In this document: piece by piece, positions 4,011 to 17,012 of the stretch
Numbering within the stretch: the first letter of the stretch is position 1
Layout: every line of letters starts with the position of its first letter
Source: a virus
DNA: 19,819 nucleotides
Virus genome (UHGV): UHGV-0254309
Reading direction: 5' to 3' (one strand)
Made by a program: the position numbers and the translations under genes
Notes under the pieces: model-generated
Database searches by the model: none
What the model was told of the DNA's origin: nothing
The model's input: the letters and a program-made list of their open reading frames with translations, nothing else

Positions 4011-4215
4011 TCATTTTCACTTTCTTAAATCTAACGACAGACGGCTAACATTTAAGTATTGTGAAATATTATCAAATGTAATCATCATTGATTTACAAAA
4101 GATACATTTTGCCCCGAAAGGATTCCTGTCAGAAACATCAAAAGATGATGTTCTATACTGAGAACCATGGCAACACGGGCATCTAAAGTGAATATGGTTT
4201 GTAATATTTTCTACC

Positions 4216-4431
4216 TCAAAGTGCCACAACATGAACAGCCGCGGGGCCTTTAGGTCCGTTCTCAATACCAAATTCGACTTCCTGATTCTCAGTTAACGTT
4301 TTGAAATCGTTGCTCTGAATAGCTGAGAAATGGACAAACACATCTTTGCTACCATCTTTCGGCGTGATGAAACCAAAACCTTTTTCAGGGTTAAACCATT
4401 TCACTAAACCAGTCATTTTGTTAGACATCAT
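4216..4431 (-). CDS. cspI: Cold-shock protein, CspA family (CspI-like)
   Basis: 70-71 aa, [38 protein letters not shown]..., with RNP1/RNP2 motifs of the cold-shock domain. Two tandem ATGs at the start. Confidence 0.85.
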
Positions 4432-4791
4432 TATTACCTTTTGAAGAAGTTAGCCCTTGGGCAGAATGGTCCGAAAAAAAATATCAGAGAGAAAAACCAA
4501 CAAGGAAATCTCAAGAGGTACAAATAATAAAATTATAACAATGACTGCTTCAGATAATTTTGTAACAAACCAGAACACCATTAACGCATGATTAACCAAC
4601 CATAGCAAGGATTACTTTTGTAAAGAAAAACACACGAATGAAACAATAGCTTTATTTATTAATAAAACGTGTCATTCTGTCTAATGACCTTTTATCTTAC
4701 CCTTAAGATTTCAAGGATTTTGACTCATGGAAGAGTCCTTTTTATTTAAATTTCACATTCAGCGCTAAAAATAATCCGATTTAATATTAAT

Positions 4792-7385: not shown

Positions 7386-7664
7386 TATTGTGGTGCTTTT
7401 TGTGGGAGTCATCCACTTACGCACTTTGTTTTGCTATGCCAGCAGTTAGCTTCTGCTGTAAAACTATTCATGCAGCAAACCTGCACTTCACCACAATGGT
7501 TAGCATACTTTTCCTGATTAAGTTATTGCCAAATATGCTGGCCATTGTTTCATGTATTGGACCTCCTTACTATTTATTAAAGAGATCCAATATTCACCAC
7601 TCTGTCTGTATCTCCACTCAGGCATCAGCCTTCTTCGTTATCGTATACAGACAAACTATGAATT

Positions 7665-7880
7665 TTAATCAGTAATTATGACATTTGCTGCTGCAGGACC
7701 TTTAGCACCACTCTCTACAGAGAAGGTAACCTTTTGACCTTCAAATAAGGTTCGAAAATTATCATTCTGAATCGCAGAAAAATGCACAAACACATCTTTA
7801 CTACCATCAACAGGAGAAATAAAGCCAAAACCTTTATCAGCGTTAAACCATTTTACTAAACCAGTCATTTTATTTGACAT
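7665..7880 (-). CDS. cspB: Cold-shock protein, CspA family (CspB-like)
   Basis: 71 aa, [45 protein letters not shown]..., full cold-shock domain; long upstream leader typical of cold-shock genes. Confidence 0.85.
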
Positions 7881-8180
7881 TCTACATTCCTTAACTTGAG
7901 CCTTTCGGCATAAATGGCTTGTATAACAGAAACGACTTCGTACTTAATTGGAGAGACTCAAAGAAGGAATAAGTGAATAACACCTGAAATGAGAACTGCT
8001 TTAGTAAACTACTTCGTATATCGTCTGTTCTTCAAACCGACGCAATCATTAACGCATAGTTGAACATATGAAGCAATGTTTATTTTAGACATCCAGCCAT
8101 CTTCAACCCCATCAAAAAACTATAGCTTTCTTCAGGAAGGTGTGTATAGTGCGCCCAGTTATCAGTATTAAGGAATTTTT

Positions 8181-12108: not shown

Positions 12109-12758
12109 GCCGCCATCTCCCTGACCAGTTTTTCCGCCTGCTGGCGAACCTGCGCCAGAAAGGCCTCACCACATGCCTCAAGTTCATCGCGCCCGATGTA
12201 GCTGATTGCCGGTCCCTTCCAGGTCTTGTCGAAAACAACAATAGCACCAGCGAAGAAAGCGCCTGTCGGCACCTGCTTCTCGTCCTTCGGTATAAACCAG
12301 GCAGGCAGTTCAAAACCAATACGCCCGCGAATAAAAGCAATATGATCTGCATCTTCCGGCCACCACACTTCGCTGGTGGCAGCTTTGATCAGGAAAACAT
12401 AGCGCCCGCCTTTATCACGCATGGCACTGGCATGTTTCATGATGTAACGCATGCCGGTGATGTATTGCCCCTCATGCTGACTGGCGCGGCTGTATGGGGG
12501 ATTACCAAAGGCAGCACCTTTAAGCTCCGCAAGACGTTCTGACCAGTCATGCGCCAGCGCGTTATCTTCCGCCGTGTAATACGCTGCACATTTGGCGTTA
12601 TCACCGTCAGTAAACAGATCCAGAACAAACGGGCCAAACAGGGTGTTAATTCCCCAAAAAATGTTGTCCGGTGTGCGCCACTGATCGCCCACTTCCTTCA
12701 GTTCATGGGCTGGTTTGTTCCGCAGTTCCACCAGCGCCTGGCAATATTTATTACTCAT
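12105..12758 (-). CDS. Phage orphan N6-adenine DNA methyltransferase (Dam-like)
   Basis: NPPY motif (GNPPYS) of amino-methyltransferases. Likely start is the ATG at 12758 in a TAATG overlap with the upstream stop (about 217 aa). No adjacent restriction endonuclease. Confidence 0.8.
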   Translation of the reverse strand: MSNKYCQALVELRNKPAHELKEVGDQWRTPDNIFWGINTLFGPFVLDLFTDGDNAKCAAYYTAEDNALAHDWSERLAELKGAAFGNPPYSRASQHEGQYITGMRYIMKHASAMRDKGGRYVFLIKAATSEVWWPEDADHIAFIRGRIGFELPAWFIPKDEKQVPTGAFFAGAIVVFDKTWKGPAISYIGRDELEACGEAFLAQVRQQAEKLVREMAA

Positions 12759-13246
12759 TAAGCCCCCACGTAATTCCCTGACAGATACCACTCTTCACCC
12801 GATGCAGCGCGCTTGCAGCTTTTCCGTAAGCACCGCTCACGACGCGTCAGAAAATTGTTTCGTTCTGGCTGGGAGTGGCTTTCACGGAATGCCGCCATCC
12901 ACACGGTTGCAGCACGACGGTATAAGCCCCTTGACTCCAGTTCTTCAGTCTGGCGGGTCAGGCACAAAATCACCCGGGGATCGTTAGTGCCGACATAGAA
13001 ATTGCGCACAGGTCTGGTTTCACGAACTGGTTGTGGTTCCGGCTCCTGCGCTCTCTCAGTCAGGCGTGGGAAATGTCTGCGTGTATCTCCTTCACAACGG
13101 TGAGCCACACGCCCACTCTGACGTAACTTGCTTGCTGACTGCAGAACGCGCTGCCGTGAGTAACCTGCAAAAGCATCCGCAATGTCTCCGGAAGTACACC
13201 CCGGATGGGCTTCAATGAATTTCTGAACTTCATTCAAAAGACTCAT
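12758..13246 (-). CDS. PerC-like transcriptional regulator with an extra N-terminal region
   Basis: Segment LESRGLYRRAATVWMAAF...RRERCL resembles the PerC/Pch family core. ATG at 13246 with GGGGGTG Shine-Dalgarno 2 nt after the O-like stop; listed ORF starts at GTG 13252. Confidence 0.5.
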   Translation of the reverse strand: MSLLNEVQKFIEAHPGCTSGDIADAFAGYSRQRVLQSASKLRQSGRVAHRCEGDTRRHFPRLTERAQEPEPQPVRETRPVRNFYVGTNDPRVILCLTRQTEELESRGLYRRAATVWMAAFRESHSQPERNNFLTRRERCLRKSCKRAASGEEWYLSGNYVGA

Positions 13247-13248
13247 GA

Positions 13249-14055
13249 TCACCCCCTGAATCCTGCCGGGATCTGGCTGTAGTCCACGTTGTCGTAACTG
13301 GCTTTGAAGTACGGGTCCTCACGTCTGGCTGCAGATACCGCAGGAACTTCCCAGGATTCTTCGAAATGACGATCCGGGCCAAAGAACGTGACAGCCTGTT
13401 TCACAAATTGTGTGCCGCTGTTACCCATCGCAGATACCCAGCCCGCGTAGCGTTTCACACCTTCCAGCATGGTTTCGGGGTTTACCCCCTCATTCAAACG
13501 GGCTTTCCAGGCTTTGAAGGCTGCAGATTTTGAATTGCCACCAGCACGTTTGGGATATACCAGCCATGCCTGCTCAAACTCCGGAGAGTATTCCGGTCGG
13601 TTTGAACGAACTCGCACGGACTCATCAACTGATGCACCAACAGCTATTGGTTCATTGACTGGTTCAAAAGAGTGACTGGTTCTGGGTGAATCTCCTGCAC
13701 TACCCCCTGGTGCAACTCCTGCACTACCTGGTGAATTTGCTGCACCAGATAGTGAATTATTTGCACTACCCCCTAGTGAATCTCCTGCACCATCAAGATG
13801 AAGGAGATAGATATTACTTGAGTTACCTTTTTCACCTTTCCGGGTGACTTTTTTTACCAGCCCGGACTCACAAAGGGCCGCAATATGATTCATCACAGAA
13901 CGTTTGCTAATCTCGCACTGGTCAGCAATATGCTGGTAGCTGGGCCAGCACTCACCCTGATCGCTGGCATTATCAGCCAGCTTGATCAGAACCAGTTTTC
14001 GCAATGGATTACCCACTCGAATTTTCATCGCTTTAACCATCAGCTCCATACTCAT
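13249..14055 (-). CDS. Replication initiator, lambda-O-like architecture (N-terminal wHTH, repeat-encoded linker, C-terminal domain)
   Basis: 268 aa; N-terminal winged HTH (LRKLVLIKLADNASDQGECWPSYQHIADQCEISKRSVMNHIAALCESGLV), low-complexity linker encoded by direct DNA repeats, distinct C-terminal domain. ATG overlaps upstream stop. Confidence 0.7.
   Translation of the reverse strand: MSMELMVKAMKIRVGNPLRKLVLIKLADNASDQGECWPSYQHIADQCEISKRSVMNHIAALCESGLVKKVTRKGEKGNSSNIYLLHLDGAGDSLGGSANNSLSGAANSPGSAGVAPGGSAGDSPRTSHSFEPVNEPIAVGASVDESVRVRSNRPEYSPEFEQAWLVYPKRAGGNSKSAAFKAWKARLNEGVNPETMLEGVKRYAGWVSAMGNSGTQFVKQAVTFFGPDRHFEESWEVPAVSAARREDPYFKASYDNVDYSQIPAGFRG
13685..13798. repeat. Iteron-like direct repeats inside the initiator gene (candidate phage replication origin)
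   Basis: About five 21-24 bp repeats with core (G/A)GTGAAT..CTGCAC (e.g. GGTGAATCTCCTGCACTACCCCCT, AGTGAATCTCCTGCACCATCAAG), flanked at 13800-13860 by an AT-rich stretch. Confidence 0.6.
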
Positions 14056-14276
14056 GCTGCACCTCCGAGATGCTTCATGTTTTTTCCGGAGCGAAAGGCT
14101 ATAAGCGGCATACTGACGCGGTAATTACGGCCCAGCGGTTCACAAATCACCTTCTGACATTCACGGTCAACCAGGCTAACACGTAGAACATGCCCTGCAG
14201 GTGTGGTATACCACTGACCCGGACGAGGACAACGGAAAGTCTGATTGGTAAACCGTTTGAAAATATTCCGGATCAT
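14052..14276 (-). CDS. Hypothetical small protein (74 aa)
   Basis: Tightly packed between the Rha-domain ORF and the initiator gene, with start/stop overlaps on both sides. No recognisable domain. Confidence 0.45.
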   Translation of the reverse strand: MIRNIFKRFTNQTFRCPRPGQWYTTPAGHVLRVSLVDRECQKVICEPLGRNYRVSMPLIAFRSGKNMKHLGGAA

Positions 14277-15421
14277 TTGCGCCCCCTTACCTCTGAAGGG
14301 TTCAGCGACAAATTTATGAGGCAGGCCAGCGCCGAAGCATCATTAATATAGTCATACAAGCTAACAGCCAGCGGAGATTCGGCTTTTGCCAACATAGGAT
14401 AAAGCTGCTGCAGCCAGACCTGATGAATTGATGAAATGTAGGAATAGAGAACGCTGGCGTTATGTGCAACGTCGCTCGGTACAGGGGGTTTTGAAAGCTG
14501 TTTCTCCATCTGGTTAAAGGCATTGATATATGCCTCTTTGAACTGGGCAGCACGTTTACCCGTGAAACCCATAGCAAGAAACGCAAAGCCGTCGCGGGTT
14601 ATTTGATAGCAAGGTAGTTTGCGGCCTGATGCGTCGATGTACTCACTGAGCTGAAAATTCAGCTCAGTAAATTCGGCAGAGCATTCAAGAGACGCAATTT
14701 TTTGAATGACATTTTTGTGTTGTTTGCCGAAATAACTAGCAACAGCCAGAGAAGAAGTAACAACTTTGTCTGCAATAATGCAAAGTTCAGGTTGTACTAA
14801 GGCAGGGATCGTAGCCATGATGGCAGCCTCCGTATGCAATGGATAACTTCCACCACCGGAAACGCCAATTTCGCTGGTGGTGAACTGAGCAGGGTTGGCG
14901 TAACCGGCGCATACGGAAACCGGCGCACCTTTCGGTGCCCCCACCCAGCCCACCATAATTTGGGTATAGCTGAGTTGTAGCAACAAAAAAGACGCTAACG
15001 CGCCAATTGTCGCCGTATGCAATTCCAGGACGCCAATCCCGGCACCCGCTTTATAAGGTGCCTGAACAGTGTAACGTCCCGGAATGGCAGAATCAATGTG
15101 CTGGTGGTCCTTCACACTCAACAAAATCACGCCTGAATTTCCACAAAGGACTAAAGCACTCATGCGGGTAGTCTTTGCGAAGATAGATAACGCGCTGTGT
15201 TTCTGGTTCCCAACGAATAACATGAACATAAAGCCCTCTTCCGTCACGAAACCAGCGGTTAAGTTCCTGCACAACTCGCCCCCCACAGTCAGGTAAAGTT
15301 CTCTGTGGTTACTTACAGCCAGGTGATTTGGTAATCTGCATTCATGCCGTAACAACAGGTGTTCAGAGACGCTGACCACCAGCTGTTGCGACAAACGGTT
15401 ATTTGCCGTTAAACTGTTCAT
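14273..15421 (-). CDS. Rha-family phage regulatory protein with a roughly 200 aa N-terminal extension of unknown function
   Basis: Residues about 215-300 (VTSSLAVASYFGKQHKNVIQKI...YQITRDGFAFLAMGFTGKRAAQFKEAYINAF) match the Rha domain. Long ORF starts at an ATG overlapping the upstream stop; an internal ATG at about 14818 with GGAGG upstream would give a 181 aa Rha-only product. Confidence 0.6.
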   Translation of the reverse strand: MNSLTANNRLSQQLVVSVSEHLLLRHECRLPNHLAVSNHRELYLTVGGELCRNLTAGFVTEEGFMFMLFVGNQKHSALSIFAKTTRMSALVLCGNSGVILLSVKDHQHIDSAIPGRYTVQAPYKAGAGIGVLELHTATIGALASFLLLQLSYTQIMVGWVGAPKGAPVSVCAGYANPAQFTTSEIGVSGGGSYPLHTEAAIMATIPALVQPELCIIADKVVTSSLAVASYFGKQHKNVIQKIASLECSAEFTELNFQLSEYIDASGRKLPCYQITRDGFAFLAMGFTGKRAAQFKEAYINAFNQMEKQLSKPPVPSDVAHNASVLYSYISSIHQVWLQQLYPMLAKAESPLAVSLYDYINDASALACLINLSLNPSEVRGRK

Positions 15422-15969
15422 GCGTTAGTTTCTCCACAGACACAAAACGCCACGACGCCCGGAGCTGCACACTCGCGGGCGTCACTCTTTTCTGGAGCGC
15501 AAAAGATTTTGTAGACCAGTGCTGCATGCTCCTGGAGCTTCGAAATTGACAGATACAACTCATCATTAATTGCTGTCTGCTCGTGTGGCTCCACTACCCC
15601 ATCTTCGATTGCCGAACGAATCTGTTTTGAGTAACTCCCGATCTGTTCGATGACTTCCAGCAGGCGCTGGTTTATATCGGCGTTCTCAACTTCCTCAATG
15701 TCAGGAAGCGATACAAACACCCCACCTGCAGACTGTGCGACAGCATCCGCAATGTAGTGAGTGCCAGCCGCGCGCTGTAAAATCATTGCCCATCCCAGCG
15801 GGAAAATCTGATCGCCATCTGCACGAAGGCGGTTGAATAAAGCGTTCTCTGTTACATCCAGCCACTCAGCAGCTTCAGCGTAACCCCCCGGCAACGCCGC
15901 GATAGTTTTTCTGACAGCTTTCACGTACCACTCAGGCTGTTTTTCCACTTTCCAGTGATGCTTACCCAC
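15418..15969 (-). CDS. Early regulatory protein in the cII position (function uncertain)
   Basis: 183 aa; GTG start preceded by a perfect AGGAGGT Shine-Dalgarno and overlapping the cro-like stop. Assigned by position only; no confident family match. Confidence 0.45.
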   Translation of the reverse strand: MGKHHWKVEKQPEWYVKAVRKTIAALPGGYAEAAEWLDVTENALFNRLRADGDQIFPLGWAMILQRAAGTHYIADAVAQSAGGVFVSLPDIEEVENADINQRLLEVIEQIGSYSKQIRSAIEDGVVEPHEQTAINDELYLSISKLQEHAALVYKIFCAPEKSDARECAAPGVVAFCVCGETNA

Positions 15970-16222
15970 GGCTTACCTCCTGTTCCTGTGGTTTAAACCC
16001 ATTCTGGTTTTGGCTAGATTGAAAACGTGCCGGATAAAGAATCTGCATTTCGCTGATTTCACCCTTAAAAAAATTGGCCAGACGCTCTGCAAGATCGATA
16101 GATGGAATTTGTTCCAGTCTCTCAATACGACTCAGCGTTGCTGGATTAACCTGAACGCCCGCAGCAACATGCTGCAAAGTAAACCCGTGCGCCTTACGCA
16201 CATTTCGTAATGGTGATTGCAT
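15962..16222 (-). CDS. Cro-like HTH (XRE family) regulator
   Basis: 86 aa with helix-turn-helix (HGFTLQHVAAGVQVNPATLSRIE). Divergent from the CI-like repressor across an operator-rich region; GGAGG Shine-Dalgarno. Confidence 0.75.
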   Translation of the reverse strand: MQSPLRNVRKAHGFTLQHVAAGVQVNPATLSRIERLEQIPSIDLAERLANFFKGEISEMQILYPARFQSSQNQNGFKPQEQEVSRG

Positions 16223-16319: not shown

Positions 16320-17012
16320 ATGAACATAGGAAACCGAGTCAGACAACTTCGCCAGGCGAAGAACATGAAAATCGCCGATCTCGCTGAAGCAATAGGAGTG
16401 GATGCGGCGAATATCTCGCGCCTGGAAACAGGTAAGCAGAAACAATTCACTGAACAAGCCCTGAGTAATATTGCCAGGAGCTTAGGTGTTGATATTGCTG
16501 ATCTCTTTACCTCAGACGTCAAAAGTAATACTGTATGTAAAAACAGTATTAGTGAGGATGTTGCGCAGGTGAAGGATGTATTCCGTATTGAAATGCTGGA
16601 TGTCAGTGCCAGTGCGGGAAATGGCCTTATCCAGGGCGGTGATGTCATTGATGTGATTCATGCCATTGAATACAGAACTGATAATGCTGTATCGATGTTT
16701 GGCGGACGACCAGCCAATCACATTAAAGTTATCAACGTTCGTGGGGACAGTATGTGTCCAACCATTGAGCCAGGAGATCTCATCTTCGTTGATGTCAGTA
16801 TCAATCAGTTTGATGGAGATGGTATCTATGTATTTGGTTTTGATGATAAAATTTATGTCAAACGACTGCAAATGATACCTGACAAACTACTGGTGATATC
16901 TGATAACCAGATTTACCGTGAATGGGGAATTACCAGCGAAAATGAACACCGGTTTATGGTCTTTGGAAAGGTCTTAATCAGCCAGTCACAAACCCTTAAA
17001 CGACACAATTAA
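16320..17012 (+). CDS. CI-like prophage repressor (HTH plus S24 LexA-type autopeptidase domain)
   Basis: 230 aa; N-terminal XRE HTH (RVRQLRQAKNMKIADLAEAIGVDAANISRLETGK), Ala-Gly cleavage-site candidate (SASAGNG), catalytic Ser in GDSMCPT and Lys in VKRLQ. Confidence 0.85.
   Translation: MNIGNRVRQLRQAKNMKIADLAEAIGVDAANISRLETGKQKQFTEQALSNIARSLGVDIADLFTSDVKSNTVCKNSISEDVAQVKDVFRIEMLDVSASAGNGLIQGGDVIDVIHAIEYRTDNAVSMFGGRPANHIKVINVRGDSMCPTIEPGDLIFVDVSINQFDGDGIYVFGFDDKIYVKRLQMIPDKLLVISDNQIYREWGITSENEHRFMVFGKVLISQSQTLKRHN

Follow-up and report, generated by a model that had tools for sequence, protein, structure and literature searches.

A predicted iteron-type replication origin inside the HTH_36 initiator gene of an Escherichia coli lambdoid prophage

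The replication origin of bacteriophage lambda lies within the gene for its own initiator, O, where four iterons (18-bp dyads spaced 20, 24 and 23 bp apart) occupy nucleotides 349–433 of 900, directly after the part coding for the N-terminal DNA-binding domain, and encode a flexible linker. Here we describe a repeat array placed in the same manner in the 19,819-nt stretch of the viral genome UHGV-0254309 that was analyzed (the window). The window comes from a lambdoid prophage of E. coli, and the gene that carries the array, an initiator gene on the minus strand (13249–14055; an open reading frame, ORF, of 807 nt with a translation of 268 residues), has a counterpart with 100% identity in an O111:H8 chromosome. 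We hold with good confidence that the array represents the initiator-binding part of the prophage replication origin, located inside the initiator gene as in lambda.

The correspondence with lambda-type origins, among which we include those of the lambdoid phages 933W and P27, comprises the internal dyad symmetry of the sites, their spacing of about two helical turns and their number, which is 4–6. Lambda O-type initiators and the initiator of the window likewise share an origin-specific N-terminal half and a partner-specific C-terminal half (PMC7466680), and in lambda as in the window the initiator gene follows cro and cII in the early rightward operon. The two systems differ in the initiator family, which is HTH_36 in the window and Phage_rep_O in lambda, and in the iteron core, which measures 15 bp and 18 bp, respectively. 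Furthermore, the weakest DNA of lambda gene O is an AT-rich tract 3′ of the iterons (78% A+T, z = 3.0), whereas the weakest DNA in the window lies 5′ of the array and the 3′ flank is a conserved 35-bp element with 60% A+T; and, unlike in lambda, no P gene follows the initiator gene. The likeness to the lambda iterons within O that was drawn in the initial annotation is thus borne out by matching anatomy and comparative evidence, and the predicted origin is very likely lambda-like in anatomy while belonging to a different initiator family (HTH_36, of the Shiga-toxin (Stx) phage type Eru6).

Two described classes of replication module come closest to that of the window. A survey from 2025 places 34 of 314 lambdoid phages in a class with an O homolog alone, whose replication is stated not to be understood (PMC12315714); like these phages, the window has an initiator but no phage helicase, loader or primase. 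In the Eru6 module (PMC8951638), as in the window, a Rha/Ash gene lies downstream of cI, cro and cII and is followed by an HTH_36 gene, and the initiator gene of the window is 97.3% identical at the DNA level to that of the Eru6 reference phage Stx2a_WGPS2 (AP012537). The Eru6 replication proteins are called uncharacterized, and Eru6 replication is described as not understood (PMC8951638). Iterons, and an origin anatomy like the present one, are absent from the papers that classify the O-only and Eru6 modules (PMC12315714, PMC8951638), and no published description of these iterons was found in the literature, although an earlier prediction of the origin may exist.

Iterons within the initiator gene

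Five direct repeats are present, with plus-strand starts at 13686, 13710, 13731, 13752 and 13776 and spacings of 24, 21, 21 and 24 bp; Tandem Repeats Finder (TRF) reports a period of 24 and 4.6 copies for 13686–13790, which corresponds to nucleotides 266–370 of the 807-nt gene. The initial annotation had counted about five repeats with a shared core, and this core can now be refined to a 15-bp partial palindrome, GTGMA-N5-TKCAC, consisting of 5-bp inverted arms (GTGCA and either TTCAC or TGCAC) around a variable 5-bp center, with the arms of each iteron complementary at 4–5 of 5 positions. Read on the gene strand and in gene order, the iterons are GTGCAGGAGATTCAC (13776–13790), GTGCAAATAATTCAC (13752–13766), GTGCAGCAAATTCAC (13731–13745), GTGCAGGAGTTGCAC (13710–13724), whose inverted arms are perfect over 5 bp, and again GTGCAGGAGATTCAC (13686–13700). 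As annotated initially, the array lies inside the initiator ORF and encodes its Gly/Ser/Ala-rich linker, GAGDSLGGSANNSLSGAANSPGSAGVAPGGSAGDSP (residues 89–124); the sites, two helical turns apart, mark where the N-terminal winged helix gives way to the C-terminal domain.

The pattern GTGMA-N5-TKCAC has 5 matches in the window, every one of them in the array, and none elsewhere, the promoter region included. Dinucleotide shuffles give an expectation of 0.12 ± 0.38 matches, and none of 200 shuffles reaches 5. Arm identity among the five units is 0.96, a value that 0 of 20,000 synonymous recodings of the same peptide attain; the recodings give 0.536 ± 0.053. Pairwise mismatches amount to 4/100 in the arms and 25/50 in the centers. 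These comparisons indicate that selection acts on the DNA of the iterons rather than on the linker peptide.

The initial annotation had made its reading depend on the conservation of the repeats among homologous initiator genes, and both their position and, within limits, their number are conserved. In a set of close relatives, 80 IMG/VR loci with an identical N-terminal domain, five iterons are found in 78 and six in 2 (L059 and L066), and phage cdtI (L002, 4001–4885) has reached eight through a 66-bp duplication of three units. Nine initiator genes, that of the window and eight from annotated phages, all carry a 21–24-bp array at about gene nucleotides 250–440, while the array units and the encoded peptides are unrelated between the initiator subfamilies compared: Vibrio phage D67 has GTGAY-N5-GTCAC and the peptide PSDRMSP, Stx2a_F451 has GGGCA-N5-TGCCC and GGAGAA, mEp021 has GTGGC-N5-GCAAC, and the array of Salmonella phage S135 encodes STPVPPE. 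The dyad design thus recurs with other arm sequences in the Vibrio, F451 and mEp021 subfamilies. A wider set was obtained by scanning species-dereplicated genomes with the N-terminal domain, which yielded 80 loci of 5 kb from hosts that include Enterobacter, Pseudomonas, Marinomonas, Shewanella, Aeromonas, Xenorhabdus, Proteus and Avibacterium. An array begins 200–400 nt into the gene in 71 of these 80 species-level loci, and 86 of the approximately 100 arrays with a period of 15–30 found anywhere in them fall into one 200-nt bin. The number of sites is usually 4–5, with a range of 0–7. The relaxed pattern GTGNA-N5-TNCAC has 292 matches within the array interval and none in the 391,669 nt outside it. 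Successive sites are spaced 21–24 bp apart in 239 of 251 cases, and 86 of the spacings are 22 or 23 bp, which means that neighboring sites are read in different frames. In Aeromonas phage AsXd-1, codons are identical at 24 of 25 positions in the array and at 11 of 11 in the element that adjoins it (see below), compared with only 29 of 63 in the N-terminal and 30 of 67 in the C-terminal domain (Fisher p = 2e-9). Because the motif is confined to the array interval and the spacings often cross reading frames, the DNA site is taken to be the conserved repeated entity and the peptide repeat in the window its by-product.

The protein region expected to contact these sites is the N-terminal DNA-binding domain (residues 1–88; 13792–14055, minus strand), which matches the Pfam family HTH_36 at residues 17–67 with E = 1.7e-11, DnaD_N remaining under its cut-off. 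Grouping the homologs according to their iteron arms shows that the predicted recognition helix, ISKRSVMNHIAA in the window (about residues 49–60), changes along with the arm type. Helices of the type SVMNHI pair with GTGCA/TTCAC arms and those of the type TTAINHI with GTGTA/TACAC arms, and STVRKHI and its relatives pair with unrelated iterons. Arms of the form GTGAC/GTCAC occur in two separate lineages, both with arginine in place of Asn56: in Erwinia/Izhakiella the helix ISKRSVMRHI is otherwise the same as ISKRSVMNHI of the window, and in Vibrio/Aliivibrio the helix ends in RTAMRHI. This covariation of helix and half-site, uncorrected for relatedness, suggests that the N-terminal domain reads the iterons, and a single residue, Asn56, is predicted to set iteron specificity.

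The junction element and the AT-rich flank

In gene sense, the last iteron is followed directly on its 3′ side by a 35-bp junction element, AGAACCAGTCACTCTTTTGAACCAGTCAATGAACC on the gene strand (13649–13683), which begins 17 nt past the first base of iteron 5 and encodes RTSHSFEPVNEP. It contains the 10-mer GAACCAGTCA twice, at 13673–13682 and 13656–13665, and these are the only two occurrences in the window. Of the 80 genome loci, 71 contain the element, in each case starting 17 nt after the last iteron begins. Its conservation at synonymous sites extends, among Gammaproteobacteria, from E. coli as far as Vibrio, Pseudomonas and Shewanella. Comparison with Vibrio phage D67, whose initiator has 49% protein identity, shows that identical residues share codons in 11 of 13 cases in the junction and in 35 of 103 in the two domains (p = 6e-4); for AsXd-1 the corresponding values are 11/11 and 59/130. 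Across 63 distinct genome loci the frequency of the major allele at third codon positions is 0.89 in the junction, as against 0.58 for equally conserved residues of the N-terminal domain. Where the element does vary, in its Phe and Asn codons, the changes affect every codon position and replace the amino acid. Among 120 viral contigs retrieved with the junction pattern, the HTH_36 N-terminal domain precedes the element in all 114 that have enough upstream DNA, 40 of them with no GTG-N9-CAC sites upstream. A 12-bp unit beside the array, GAACCAGTCAAA, has up to three extra copies in close relatives, and the window represents the shortest form (807-nt gene, 5 of 80 loci). The junction element may be a site of unwinding, of helicase entry or of cofactor binding.

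A possible model for the GAACCAGTCA repeats is offered, by analogy, by the iteron origins of plasmids such as RK2, F, R6K and pPS10, in which direct initiator sites about 22 bp apart stand beside short repeats where the DNA opens, and in which Rep also contacts these short repeats as single strands. The plasmid systems differ from the window in that their iterons lie outside the rep gene, their Rep proteins have WH1–WH2 folds of other families and DnaA boxes are normal; in the window the iterons lie inside the initiator gene, and neither such folds nor DnaA boxes were found.

The AT-rich stretch that was initially noted next to the repeats is real, and nearest-neighbor stability places it at 13792–13831 (70% A+T), on the 5′ side of the array in gene sense, where it is the least stable 40-mer of the initiator gene (z = 3.2) and encodes the wing of the winged-helix DNA-binding domain. 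The conserved element is located on the other side of the array. In the AT-rich flank, synonymous differences separate the codons from those of Vibrio phage D67, the only distant homolog in this comparison. In several other subfamilies the weakest DNA lies 3′ of the array. The 3′ element is, in our view, the more likely functional partner of the iterons, although either flank may be the one that unwinds.

The initiator protein and its proposed helicase partner

The initiator consists of three parts, the N-terminal HTH_36 winged helix, the Gly/Ser/Ala-rich linker and a C-terminal helical domain (about residues 150–245; 13321–13608, minus strand). As a whole it matches PHROG 270, 'replication initiation protein', with E = 8e-88, and is 97–99% identical to the 'replication protein' of SfV, mEp460, cdtI and Stx2c phages; near-identical genes are found in SfV, mEp460, cdtI, Ayreon, Stx2c and Stx2a phages and ST64B. 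The protein has no match to the lambda O family Phage_rep_O (PF04492), to which lambda O itself is assigned with E = 6e-36, and a profile alignment (hhalign) of the N-terminal domain with lambda O gives 11% probability, i.e., no relationship. By these profile comparisons the initiator and lambda O are not homologous in sequence, the initiator belonging to Pfam HTH_36 instead of Phage_rep_O. A search of NCBIfam returned only HTH regulators below threshold, and a sequence search of the PDB with the whole initiator gave only chance matches to the low-complexity linker. The C-terminal domain matches no Pfam family, and a large protein search with it retrieved mostly fragments without a Pfam domain, from which no function could be transferred. 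Many database entries for the initiator carry the label 'partial', with one end close to the linker, and the repeat array may be a point where short-read assemblies break.

No P-like or DnaC-like loader had been noticed in the initial annotation, and tblastn searches of the whole window with lambda P, DnaC-like, DnaB-like and two primase-helicase queries returned nothing. In the wider family, the HTH_36 N-terminal domain, the iterons and the junction element are combined with many different C-terminal domains, and the gene after the initiator encodes a DnaC-like protein, DnaC-like and DnaB-like proteins together, a lambda-P-like protein or a primase-helicase. The types of C-terminal domain partly track the type of partner gene. 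Those resembling mEp021 accompany a DnaB-like helicase alone, S135-like and lambda-O-like domains mostly accompany P-like or DnaC-like loaders, and the window-type domain, in 16 of 17 loci outside the SfV group, occurs together with a DnaC-like and a DnaB-like gene. The same holds for AsXd-1 (L004, 3326–5583), whose initiator is 67% identical to that of the window and is followed by a DnaC-like AAA+ loader and a DnaB-like helicase, and L106, L114, L124 and L135 likewise combine a window-type C-terminal domain with genes for a DnaC-like loader and a DnaB-like helicase. In view of these five cases, the lack of a loader in the E. coli/Shigella branch is not general for the window-type C-terminal domain. 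Since relatives with this domain carry DnaC-like and DnaB-like genes, it is probably an adaptor to a DnaC/DnaB-type system.

The last nine residues of the initiator, SQIPAGFRG (13252–13278, minus strand), form a tail that blastp aligns with SQIPPGFRG of E. coli DnaT, with 8 of 9 residues identical and both at the extreme C-terminus; the initiator ends in DYSQIPAGFRG and DnaT in PDSQIPPGFRG. Related tails elsewhere in the family are PDNTVPPGFRG and PDSTIPAGFRG. When the initiators with 1.5 kb or more of downstream DNA are compared, those with a GFRG tail are followed by a PerC-like gene in 28 cases and by a DnaC-like gene only in 8, and a DnaB-like helicase, P-like loader or primase-helicase lies downstream in 0 of these 36, compared with 71 of 110 initiators with other tails. 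We considered and rejected homology of the initiator to DnaT, for which hhalign of the C-terminal domain gives 1.9% probability and Pfam DnaT no match. As only these nine residues match, and domain architecture and function differ, the annotation as DnaT or 'primosomal protein I' in some phage records is a misnomer.

Proposed mechanism, alternatives and genomic setting

In the mechanism that we propose, dimers of the N-terminal domain would occupy the five sites, all on one face of the DNA helix, and form a complex similar to the lambda 'O-some'. This complex would destabilize a flank, either the 35-bp element or the AT-rich 5′ flank, and the C-terminal domain would then recruit a DnaB-type helicase. 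With neither a loader nor a helicase encoded by this phage type, the enzyme recruited would be DnaB of the host together with host DnaC, and the DnaT-like tail may participate in the process. Transcription from the early rightward promoter would pass through the origin, as in lambda. We extend this only tentatively, and short of favoring it, to HTH_36 initiators across Gammaproteobacteria, which might share a common design of dyad iterons that set specificity, a sequence-specific 35-bp element with GAACCAGTCA repeats at an exact 17-nt register and a swappable partner domain; the 35-bp element would serve as strand-opening or helicase-entry site in place of a generic AT-rich tract, and the loader-less branch of E. 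coli, Shigella and Salmonella would capture the host helicase through a tail that mimics DnaT.

Several observations weigh against the assignment of an origin. The account given of binding, of unwinding and of where synthesis starts is a prediction from sequence. Neither flank resembles a classical unwinding element: the 5′ flank is merely in the top 3.5% of unstable 40-mers window-wide, and the conserved 3′ element has only 60% A+T, with z = 1.6 within the gene. Inspection by eye recognized no DnaA box or other known host-factor site. The homolog counts are not phylogenetically independent, and the loci were chosen via conserved N-terminal peptides. Finally, the resemblance of the tail to DnaT does not identify a partner, because residues 154–179 of DnaT are structurally and functionally undefined and the way in which DnaT recruits DnaB–DnaC is stated as unknown (PMC4132743, PMC13377028); the tail is a lead, not an explanation.

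The lack of a textbook unwinding element on either side, together with the lack of direct evidence for an initiation point in the window, leaves some room for the notion that the sites bind the initiator for regulation (autorepression, a roadblock, handcuffing or exclusion of related phages) while synthesis starts elsewhere, and plasmid iterons do serve in control too. We regard this as improbable, since the window, its promoter region included, has no further iteron-like site, the architecture agrees in most respects with the lambda origin as defined by experiment, and a nucleotide-conserved element at a fixed distance from the last iteron is hard to explain by regulation alone.

An origin is also preferred over the proposal that the 35-bp element, and perhaps the array too, is mainly a recombination junction for swapping initiator halves. 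N-terminal and C-terminal halves do recombine freely, with the breakpoint in the junction region, and the element is identical in very different hosts. The conservation of its third codon positions in hosts from Pseudomonas to Xenorhabdus, its exact register with the last iteron and the varying copy number of its internal 10–12-bp repeat, features that point to a site read as DNA, nevertheless make a mainly recombinational function decidedly improbable. The recombination and initiation roles of the element are compatible.

The absence of any DnaC-, DnaB-, P- or primase-helicase-like gene from the window could also mean that the module is a defective remnant that has lost its loader gene and no longer replicates alone. 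Truncated remnants of the initiator gene are indeed very common in E. coli chromosomes, with at least a partial match in 2720 of 5426 complete genomes and a near full-length gene in 897 of the 5426, about 1 in 6. This is very improbable as an account of the window, for the same gene order occurs in the complete genomes of isolated phages (SfV, mEp460, Ayreon, cdtI and phiSTEC1575-Stx2k), the complete 37-kb SfV genome lists no other replication gene, and phages with only an O homolog are a recognized class (PMC12315714). The tblastn queries returned nothing in 83 close relatives either (SfV, cdtI, ST64B and the 80 IMG/VR loci), and the initiator gene is intact in all 84 SfV-type loci that these make up with the window. 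Because the loader-less arrangement is found in the 83 relatives and in the viable phage SfV, the replication module, initially described as non-canonical or incomplete, is non-canonical but not incomplete.

The least probable alternative is that the repeats are a slippage-prone, low-complexity linker whose DNA similarity stems from recent duplication and whose DNA has no function, an idea in keeping with the Gly/Ser/Ala-rich product and the varying copy number but opposed by nearly invariant arms next to variable centers and spacers, by conservation of synonymous sites across genera, by the 22- and 23-bp spacings that give different frames and different peptides in many homologs, by peptides that differ fully between subfamilies while position and the 21–24-bp period are kept, and by half-sites that covary with the recognition helix.

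The initiator gene is embedded in a lambdoid early region, in which a cI-like repressor gene (16320–17012) lies on the plus strand and cro (15962–16222), a cII-like gene (15418–15969), a Rha/Ash-domain gene (14273–15421; 382 residues with Phage_pRha and Phage_ASH domains) and a 74-residue ORF (14052–14276) lie on the minus strand upstream of it. The 74-residue ORF was considered as a hidden accessory factor of the loader-less state and rejected; it accompanies the Rha/Ash gene and is not specific to that state, because it is also present in relatives that encode DnaC and DnaB. Downstream, in the position of P in lambda, follows a PerC-like gene of the yfdN type (12758–13252, minus strand), and then, in order on the same strand, dam, a LexA-like gene, rusA, KilA-N, DUF968/HNH and a Q-like gene. 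The identification of the PerC-like gene, already made in the initial annotation, agrees with Pfam (PerC, E = 1e-7), PHROG ('transcriptional activator') and the RefSeq name 'yfdN: PerC family transcriptional regulator'; the gene is found in 84 of 84 SfV-type loci and is probably not a replication gene. Its start, at 13244–13259, is either a GTG that overlaps the initiator stop codon or an ATG 3 nt past the stop, and a purine-rich AGGGGG lies within the last initiator codons ahead of it, which suggests that the initiator and the PerC-like gene are translationally coupled.

Rfam detects no known RNA family in or near the iteron array. On the minus strand, at 14873–14960 and 14985–15061, it reports the C4 antisense RNA (80.7 bits) and the Hfq-binding small RNA isrK (61.2 bits), both above the Rfam gathering score. 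Since these matches fall within the 5′ third of the 382-residue Rha/Ash ORF, the true start of the Rha/Ash protein may be further downstream, and control by antisense-RNA immunity or an anti-repressor may be present. Two matches to the cspA thermoregulator, also on the minus strand (7602–8041 and 4170–4586; 156 and 110 bits), overlap 71-residue ORFs at 7665–7880 and 4216–4431, so that the prophage may carry two cold-shock-type genes with 5′ leaders.

The locus would be a new, uncharacterized instance of a familiar type of origin, carried by a prophage that is very common. The main interest lies less in the iterons themselves than in the family-wide junction element, the covariation of recognition helix and half-site and the DnaT-like tail. 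The resulting origin map comprises five defined predicted sites, a predicted specificity residue, a conserved neighboring element and a candidate host-recruitment motif, and it would explain both the short-read assembly breaks inside the initiator gene and the misleading annotation as 'primosomal protein I'. The same initiator gene is found in Eru6 Shiga-toxin phages, where phage DNA replication drives toxin production.

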